A DNA stretch of 61,796 nt, the filler included. It is 5 parts of 5 records of this genome, joined end to end, with 100 filler letters (N's around TTAATTAATTAA, not from the genome) between each part and the next. Parts side by side here need not be neighbours in the genome. Positions count along the whole stretch, not along the records: positions 5,150 to 30,481 come from SRR2962707_3490; 4 more parts are not named here. One strand, 5' to 3'. Below, piece after piece: positions 10,015 through 10,817 of this stretch (its first letter is position 1; each line of letters begins with the position of its first letter). The notes beneath the pieces are model-generated. The model did not search any database. It worked only from the letters and a program-made list of their open reading frames with translations, and was not told the DNA's origin. A program made the translations under genes and the position numbers.

Positions 10015-10437
10015 TCACTTGGCCGGATCAACCTTGCCACGCAGGGCCTTAACTTCTCCGCGGACTTTCTTTTCCTTCAGACGTCGTTTTTTCGACCCCA
10101 GCGTGGGCCGGGTTGGGATGCGGCGTTTGGGCGGGGTCAGCGCTGATTTGATCAGCTCTTTCAACCGGTCACGCGCGATTTCGCGGTTGCGGGCTTGGCT
10201 GCGCGTCTCGTCACATTGGATGACCAACGCCCCCTCGTTGGTCCACCGGCGACCCGCCAGCCTGCGCAGACGGGTTTTCACGGGGTTGGTTAACGAAGGC
10301 GAGGTCGCGGCCTCGAACCTCAATTCAACCGCGCTTGAGACCTTGTTCACGTTCTGCCCACCGGGGCCGGACGCCCGCATAAAGCTTTCGGTCAGCTCCC
10401 AGTCTTGAATGGCAATTTCGTCGGTAATGTGCAGCAC
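10015..10437 (-). CDS. arfB: Alternative ribosome rescue factor ArfB
   Basis: RASGPGGQNVNKVSS, RSQARNR, basic tail; GTG start after AAGGAG. Confidence 0.95.
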   Translation of the reverse strand: MLHITDEIAIQDWELTESFMRASGPGGQNVNKVSSAVELRFEAATSPSLTNPVKTRLRRLAGRRWTNEGALVIQCDETRSQARNREIARDRLKELIKSALTPPKRRIPTRPTLGSKKRRLKEKKVRGEVKALRGKVDPAK

Positions 10438-10501: not shown

Positions 10502-10529
10502 AAAAGGGCCGCCCAATAAAGAGCGGCCC
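10502..10529 (-). terminator. Intrinsic terminator ending the intergenic RNA upstream of arfB
   Basis: GGGCCGC...GCGGCCC stem followed by TTTT on the minus strand. Confidence 0.75.
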
Positions 10530-10602
10530 AATCGAATGGTTTACGGAGGTGGGATCGGTTAGATCAGCGATCCACCCAAGGTTCTGACCACTAAGGGCTG
10601 CC

Positions 10603-10659
10603 CTAGCGGTTGTTCTCCCAAGCTGTTCCGACACCTCGCTCCAATACCGTTCTTGACAC
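10603..10659 (-). CDS. Putative 18-aa peptide MSRTVLERGVGTAWENNR
   Basis: GTG 7 nt after GGAGG of a maximal SD; TAG at 10603. Confidence 0.45.
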   Translation of the reverse strand: MSRTVLERGVGTAWENNR

Positions 10660-10749
10660 TGGATCACCTCCTTTACATTTGTTGAACTTACCCAAAGCTT
10701 TGCACAGGATGGGCAAAAGGCAAAACGTTTTTTGAGGTCGTGAAATGCA

Positions 10750-10798
10750 TGCGGGCGCAAAGATGTGGCCAGTCTTTGGCATCATCTTTGCGCCCGCA
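10750..10798. repeat. 16-bp perfect inverted repeat (REP-like or yhhQ 3' hairpin)
   Basis: TGCGGGCGCAAAGATG...CATCTTTGCGCCCGCA. Confidence 0.8.
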
Positions 10799-10817
10799 GG
10801 GGTCGTTTGAATGTGGT

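Follow-up and report, generated by a model that had tools for sequence, protein, structure and literature searches.

How should an 18-codon reading frame be understood when the Shine-Dalgarno (SD) sequence in front of it is a perfect 16-nt complement of the 3' end of 16S rRNA, and when arfB, whose product rescues stalled ribosomes, lies downstream on the same strand? The question is raised by one locus in the window, a term used here for the whole stretch of DNA that was analyzed (61,796 nt, filler included, joined from five records). A first-pass annotation, made from the letters alone, had proposed either a ribosome-capturing small RNA or a leader that senses translation status beside the rescue factor. 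The first proposal survives in the form of a conserved RNA gene that engages the ribosome; for the arfB leader or sensor, no support was found. The best explanation, which we hold to be very probable together with its mechanism, is that the element is rreR, a gene that stands on its own and encodes a small, structured mRNA about 190 nt long; it belongs to the alphaproteobacterial rre family and is of the same locus type as the Caulobacter sRNA CC2171. As such, the element is already known: it is an ordinary copy of the published rreR.

Anatomy of the locus

On the minus strand, the sequence runs ...ACAAATGT AAAGGAGGTGATCCAG TG TCA AGA... and, in a longer reading, ...TTCAACAAATGT AAAGGAGGTGATCCAG TG TCA AGA ACG..., with AAAGGAGGTGATCCAG occupying 10674-10659 (plus strand 10659-10674, CTGGATCACCTCCTTT). 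At CCAG/TG (10662-10657), the final G of the complement doubles as the first base in the GTG start codon (10659-10657), from which MSRTVLERGVGTAWENNR is read over 18 codons to a stop, TAG, at 10605-10603. Complement and frame read just as the first-pass annotation had them, and its equation of the complement with the bacterial 16S terminus is borne out as well: the Rfam SSU model in the Rhodobacterales relative G003 ends exactly at ...GCGGCTGGATCACCTCCTTT, and this 16S end was the one used for the window's complement. No match to an rRNA gene was found anywhere within the window; a fragment of a 16S gene on the plus strand was considered and rejected, the match covering 16 nt only.

A search of the window for this 16-mer gives a single match, also when two mismatches are allowed, against a chance expectation of 0.02, and 2 of 100 shuffled controls gave one match. 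Together with the conserved, free-standing small RNA gene described below, these figures uphold the earlier view that this is no chance SD. The features of the locus are collected in Table 1.

Table 1. Features of the rreR locus and its neighbors, with positions along the window
Feature	Position	Strand	Basis
Candidate -35 hexamer TTGCCT	10718..10723	-	Alignment of 30 Rhodobacterales-type sequences (conserved TTTGAC block)
Candidate -10 hexamer AAAGCT after TGC (extended -10 type)	10696..10701	-	Conserved block TGn-nAnGCT, 16 nt downstream of the -35 block
Extended Shine-Dalgarno AAAGGAGGTGATCCAG, complement of the last 16 nt of 16S rRNA	10659..10674	-	Sequence; 16S end of a relative
rreR small ORF, GTG + 17 codons + TAG, MSRTVLERGVGTAWENNR	10603..10659	-	Sequence; 25 aligned relatives
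Predicted hairpin P1, UCCAGUGUC / GGUAUUGGA	10640..10663	-	Window MFE fold and RNAalifold consensus
SD-like segment UUGGAGCGAGGUGUCGG, codons 6-11, 5' strand of the predicted long-range helix	10628..10644	-	RNAalifold; duplex energies
Small predicted hairpin CUAGGG-CAGC-CCUUAG, stop codon in 5' arm	10591..10606	-	Sequence and consensus fold
3' element AACCGAUCCCACCUCCGUAA, 16S-tail look-alike	10541..10561	-	Window MFE; duplex energies
Intrinsic terminator GGGCCGCUC-UUUAUU-GGGCGGCCC-UUUU	10502..10529	-	Sequence, fold, RNAalifold covariation
arfB (neighbor, outside the RNA), GTG start	10015..10437	-	Pfam RF-1 domain PF00472, 9.5e-25
Vut_1/YhhQ-type transporter gene, upstream	11438-10818	-	Pfam scan

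Two further features lie upstream of the frame. A perfect 15-bp inverted repeat, GCGGGCGCAAAGATG...CATCTTTGCGCCCGC, stands at 10750-10800 on the minus strand, shortly past the stop of the Vut_1/YhhQ-like gene, and probably represents either a repeat element or the terminator of that gene. A 60-codon frame (10785-10603), which would extend the mini-ORF upstream, was rejected: it crosses the promoter region and a hairpin, and conservation lies elsewhere.

Relation to the rre genes and to CC2171

Very long SD complements have been described before. Using the 16S end in genome searches, Hahn et al. (RNA Biol 2016/2017;14:1353, PMC5711450) found rreR in Rhodobacter and Roseobacter, a gene in which the last base of a 16-17-nt 16S complement lies in the GTG of an 18-codon sORF (Hahn et al. 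2016). In Bradyrhizobiaceae, the 165-nt mRNA of rreB carries a 17-nt stretch complementary to the 16S 3' end and a frame of 14 codons that starts with GTG, and the RNA was detected by Northern blot in B. japonicum (PMC5711450). It co-sediments mainly with 30S subunits, strong binding having been shown by experiment; an egfp fusion is translated weakly, impeded by its extended SD and by its GTG; and the RNA is stabilized once the start codon is changed to a stop (PMC5711450). Synthetic RreB and RreR peptides are unstructured and overproduction was without effect on growth, while the authors report that genomic context is not conserved beyond Bradyrhizobiaceae and call the function of the rre genes elusive (PMC5711450).

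The window element shares with rreR the 16-nt complement closed by the G of the GTG, an MSR..LERGVGT-type frame of 18 codons and a Roseobacter-type lineage; like the rre genes described in PMC5711450, it has a terminator of its own and a predicted hairpin that covers the start codon together with the SD's 3' half. Its complement has 16 nt, not the 17 of Bradyrhizobium, because T rather than G stands before AAAGG; we see no essential difference from the rre genes as that paper describes them. The published description of rreR, with at least 16 nt of perfect complement, overlap with GTG and an 18-codon sORF conserved in the clade, fits the window element in each respect. The lineage fits too: among the matches listed, the closest loci are those of two Sulfitobacter metagenome-assembled genomes (MAGs; L005 and L012), to which the window's ArfB is 85.5% and 84.8% identical and its YhhQ-like protein 86% and 83%, which places the host in the Rhodobacter/Roseobacter lineage. 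A contig labeled as a Cytophagales MAG (L010) ends in the 5' part of a Rhodobacterales-type rreR that hardly differs from that of Sulfitobacter, and the contig was probably mis-binned.

The first-pass annotation had also proposed an Rfam scan and a search for conservation. The scan returned one meaningful match, to RF01867 (Caulobacter sRNA CC2171), in a full-length alignment of model positions 1-159 on 10684-10506 with an E value of 1.2e-5 and 34.8 bits, a score that falls below the curated gathering score of 75. Like the window element, CC2171 has the 5' consensus AAAGGAGGUGAUCCAGUGUC, a terminal hairpin and, in relatives, one copy per genome (one strong hit in each of five genomes out of five). 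The difference lies in the score and in the central domain, which in Rhodobacterales is unlike the Caulobacter/Methylobacterium type. Scores grade across lineages, from 32.5 to 96.8 bits: Rhodobacterales-type loci reach 32.5-43.2, Bradyrhizobium-type rreB loci 41.7-49.4 and other lineages 51.4-96.8. Because all three sets of loci score on RF01867, the rre genes and Rfam's CC2171 are one locus type. The rreB-type loci scored here have the tRNA neighbor that is reported in PMC5711450. In an even draw of 151 genomes of the class, 22 gave RF01867 hits (E <=0.001), five of them above the cut-off.

The link between the two names is absent from the main text of PMC5711450, which mentions none of arfB, Rfam or CC2171, and from the passages of the Methylorubrum preprint that concern this RNA (bioRxiv 10.1101/2022.01.24.477521). 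According to that preprint, CC2171 was first found in C. crescentus; its RNA was detected by Northern blot in Methylorubrum. In the literature searched, we found no functional follow-up of CC2171, RF01867, rreB or rreR. In Methylobacterium L037, the rre/CC2171 gene has an ffh sRNA (RF01793, 61.1 bits, at 981-1033) and an SRP54-type gene some 0.8-1 kb away.

Conservation was also traced with the exact 18-mer AAAGGAGGTGATCCAGTG, which was found at at least 120 loci, mostly in Alphaproteobacteria, in a species-level genome collection. Among the matches listed, 29 Rhodobacterales-type loci carry the 18-codon frame MSR..LE(R/K)GVGT, Bradyrhizobium-type loci carry a 14-codon frame, MS..KRCHLAGIAR, and frames of 21-26 codons beginning MSHC... 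are found in Rhizobiales, Caulobacterales and Acetobacteraceae. The 18-mer is also present ahead of tiny ORFs outside the class (L014, L045, L115; L030, L033, L104; L029, L039, L116), and in several of these loci a hairpin resembling a terminator stands 117-163 nt downstream. The frame shared by Planctomycetota MAGs has 16 residues, VTYGDCTGEC.GGFSY; frames in Phycisphaerae have 9-12 residues and those in Burkholderiales 24-26. These loci look like rre-like genes in other phyla.

The conserved unit

A search with an 18-mer that requires GTG is blind to other start codons, and the Rfam covariance model was therefore searched too, as an unbiased look. Its 21 new hits define a core of 14 nt, AAAGGAGGTGATCC, exact in 17 of them, which is followed by one base and then by ATG (12), GTG (7) or TTG (2); codon 2 is TCN in all but one. 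Four hits depart from the core, three of them (L133, L137 and L147) by transitions after which wobble pairing with the 16S tail would persist: the core reads GGUGGUCC in two cases and GAUCU in one, and a G-U wobble to 16S would be kept. The unit conserved across Alphaproteobacteria is thus a 14-nt complement of the free 16S tail, then a spacer base, a start codon of whatever identity, and a codon for serine. This complement covers the whole of the single-stranded 16S tail and is set seven bases ahead of a start codon. As for the sixteenth paired base, it is supplied by the GTG, as its G, and is therefore found in lineages of the GTG type specifically.

RNA structure

The predicted minimum free energy (MFE) fold of the window RNA lies at -72.3 kcal/mol (z = -3.34). 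A consensus fold was derived from 25 Rhodobacterales copies drawn from the 18-mer matches listed, and compensatory changes, in at least one sequence, were found at 17 of its 36 pairs. Hairpin P1 (RNAalifold columns 24-32/39-47; consensus pairing UCCAGUGUC/G..AUUGGA), with its four outer pairs formed in 25/25, is predicted to cover the start codon along with the extended SD's 3' half, in agreement with the hairpin that Hahn et al. predicted for rreB (PMC5711450). The consensus also includes a covarying central helix, a long-range helix in which GUCGG of codons 10-11 pairs with CCGA(C/U)C (columns 55-59/145-150), and a hairpin at the stop codon (columns 84-86/91-93), where both sides have changed at 84:93 in six sequences. 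The terminator (columns 173-183/192-202) shows compensatory changes at 8 of 11 pairs across the 25 relatives; in the window it is a 9-bp, G+C-rich hairpin followed by UUUU (10529-10502). The order noted at first pass, a terminator and then arfB on the same strand, is thus found as claimed.

Directly before the terminator stands CCCACCUCC, a look-alike of the 16S tail with two possible partners within the RNA. In the window MFE fold, the 3' element is paired with GGAGGUG. Duplexes of this element with the SD average -14.3 kcal/mol in the Rhodobacterales copies (at or below -8 in 24 of 25), and those with the ORF segment UUGGAG..AGGUGUCGG average -17.5 kcal/mol and are the stronger of the two in 21 of 25. 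A general internal anti-SD across the whole family was considered and set aside: over 90 loci, duplexes between the 14-nt SD and the body of the RNA had a mean of -12.7 kcal/mol, only slightly better than the -10.7 of shuffled sequences, with a median z of -0.9 and 23/90 below -2. For this reason the look-alike element is claimed for the Rhodobacterales type alone.

Promoter and transcript

Aligned relatives share a TTGACA block (in most of them), 13 bases, TGn and nAnGCT; the window has TTGCCT at 10723-10718 and TGC-AAAGCT at 10704-10696. The conserved blocks fit a candidate promoter of the extended -10 type, from which transcription is predicted to begin near 10689 and to give an RNA about 188 nt long (10689-10502), close to the first-pass estimate of about 185 nt. 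A scan for consensus promoters and terminators called no promoter within its range and, as its sole terminator-like site, 10768-10780 on the other strand; the rreR terminator was missed by this simple scan because its tail has just four T residues. A separate rreR transcript would need a terminator of its own, which covaries, and a promoter of its own, for which there is a candidate that is conserved but uncalled by the scan.

Eleven sequencing runs each matched 5-9% of sampled words. Contigs from four RNA-library runs were 90-99% identical over 10549-10695 and part of the upstream gene; they are the conserved parts of relatives' loci and are uninformative on the ends, strand or expression of the window locus.

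Relation to arfB

The neighboring rescue gene gives this locus much of its appeal. In tblastn searches with the window's proteins, arfB was found downstream on the same strand at 22 of the 29 Rhodobacterales-type loci among the matches listed, and a YhhQ-like gene upstream at most of them; neither gene was near any of the 91 other 18-mer loci among the matches listed. Where full flanks were available (20 Rhodobacterales-type loci, the window included), arfB was present at 18; L040 and L075 have none within 2 kb, and at L001 and L062 another gene stands between rreR and arfB. In other lineages, Pfam found no RF-1-domain neighbor among 110 ORFs at 28 pattern-found loci (28 of 40 selected, 12 having been dropped, L034 among them), nor among 82 ORFs at the 21 evenly drawn homolog loci, and clustering of the flanking ORFs yielded no neighbor common to different orders.

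The first-pass annotation had reasoned that homologs unlinked to arfB would remove the link to the rescue factor and leave the RNA itself in place. This is what was found outside Rhodobacterales. Most likely, arfB beside rreR is a separately expressed gene, in an order inherited within Rhodobacterales.

The junction between the two genes is tight. Between the T-run of the terminator and the first codon of arfB lie 14-64 nt in 16 of 23 cases, and most Rhodobacterales arfB starts (L004, L016, L036, L061, L119, L020, L054 and others) lack an SD and have a TAnnnT-like hexamer 6-8 nt before the ATG. This pattern suggests that such arfB mRNAs are leaderless, with a promoter of their own overlapping the rreR terminator. 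The window's arfB differs from most relatives in that it has an AAGGAG (10450-10445) and starts with GTG; TTCACT-N16-GATACT, put forward earlier as a candidate arfB promoter, is at 10484-10457.

With a probably leaderless arfB beginning right beside the terminator of rreR, functional coupling of the two genes in Rhodobacterales is conceivable: transcription, termination or ribosome trapping at rreR might set the supply of ArfB, or ArfB might free ribosomes stuck on rreR and so trigger decay of the RNA. We consider this a long shot. If it were true, the cell would have in rreR an internal gauge, placed beside a rescue factor, of stalled ribosomes or free 30S subunits.

A rival reading takes up the leader or sensor proposed at first pass: the small RNA would be the 5' leader of arfB or would share control with it, and the loading of ribosomes at the super-SD or at the mini-ORF would decide how far the terminator is read through, or how a promoter is used, and hence how much ArfB is supplied. 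The shared strand at the window and at the 22 of 29 loci speaks for it, as do the short gap and the absent SD, which leave little room for a separate arfB promoter; Hahn et al. speculate, moreover, that ribosomes trapped by rreB may need rescue (PMC5711450). The architecture recalls ribosome-dependent attenuator leaders that also act as small RNAs, such as trpL/rnTrpL of Sinorhizobium (PMC6614838): there too, a tiny ORF, a structured RNA and a terminator precede a gene of the same strand. In contrast to such leaders, the window element has no downstream gene conserved across lineages, no regulatory codons that we recognize and no alternative anti-terminator that we could find. A leader of this kind would be expected to have its downstream gene linked wherever the leader occurs, whereas arfB linkage is confined to the Rhodobacterales type among the matches listed; rreB adjoins a tRNA gene instead, both in PMC5711450 and at the loci scored here. 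The terminator is conserved with compensatory changes, the hexamer before arfB in most relatives fits a promoter of its own, and the window offers both the TTCACT-N16-GATACT sequence and an SD. The exceptional loci without arfB or with an intervening gene, and the lack of RF-1 neighbors in other lineages, point the same way, and a leader for arfB appears very improbable. Our preferred reading remains a free-standing rreR gene next to an independently expressed arfB.

Some neighbors elsewhere have a translation flavor. The pattern-found loci include RNase R/II-like (L031), RF3 (L052), Glu/Gln-tRNA synthetase (L049) and SRP54 (L037) genes; in L052 the rre gene is back to back with RF3. In Bosea L031 and L034 it lies directly upstream of a gene with RNB and cold-shock domains (Pfam-scanned in L031), L034 having the same mini-ORF as L031 and, downstream, an ORF that matches. 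That neighbors share a theme of translation or rescue was nevertheless judged a coincidence because the theme finds no echo in the evenly drawn sample, where FtsJ (L139) was the only translation-related neighbor at 21 loci.

The mini-ORF

In each of the 25 aligned Rhodobacterales copies the frame runs for 18 codons, and codon 19 is a stop: TAG in 15, TAA in 6 and TGA in 4. The first 12 residues are conserved and the last six vary freely; synonymous variants occur at the conserved codons 2, 6, 8 and 11. Across the 90 family-like loci, frame 0 spans 14-27 codons in 88/90, compared with 19/88 and 17/86 for the other frames; these loci are the ones that passed an ad hoc filter among 121 sequences, and kinship among them inflates the frame counts. 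Codons 1-2 and 5-11 sit in predicted helices, and for this reason conservation of the first 12 residues is not cleanly separable from constraint on the RNA structure.

The least probable reading, and an extremely unlikely one, is a purely non-coding, trans-acting sRNA that pairs with mRNAs or titrates 30S subunits, its mini-ORF being incidental: Rfam does file RF01867 as non-coding ('Gene; sRNA'), the peptides are unrelated between lineages (14, 18 and 21-26 residues), and the unstructured synthetic peptides and unaffected growth reported in PMC5711450 would suit it, but the start codon holds its distance from the core while its identity varies, the stop at codon 19 persists through changes of identity, the length of frame 0 is bounded as that of other frames is not, rreB fusions are translated, the start codon affects RNA stability, and the finding that overexpression of the ribosome-binding RNA left growth unslowed argues against simple titration (PMC5711450).

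A model for rreR action

Taken as a small mRNA, rreR can be fitted to a mechanism in which most steps are modeled on rreB of Bradyrhizobium. Contact with a 30S subunit would begin at the unpaired 5' bases (AAAGGAGG) of the extended SD, which would nucleate a duplex with the 16S tail. Pairing would then zip through P1, the hairpin in which AUCCAG and the start codon are otherwise hidden, with the result that the RNA is held tightly on the 30S subunit. As in rreB, the over-long SD and the GTG may keep translation of the tiny frame weak, and initiation or translation may govern decay of the RNA. In the predicted fold, the 3' look-alike CCCACCUCC would pair with the SD-like stretch of the ORF or, alternatively, with the SD; given the pairing with the ORF segment, a translating ribosome would be expected to free the CCCACCUCC element and remodel the fold. 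By analogy with rreB of B. japonicum, 30S binding, weak translation and start-codon-dependent decay most likely apply to the window's rreR. The ribosome-capturing RNA envisaged at first pass agrees with the 30S-binding experiments on its homolog (PMC5711450).

Implications for the rre family

To our knowledge, no natural Shine-Dalgarno pairing is longer than that of the rre small mRNAs. Among the oddities of translation initiation, they are conserved over several alphaproteobacterial orders and, ten years after their description, still without an assigned function. Beyond the main text of PMC5711450, the present analysis indicates that the rre genes and CC2171 form one locus type, that what is truly conserved is the unit built on the 14-nt core, and that the gene order with arfB belongs, among the matches listed, to Rhodobacterales only.
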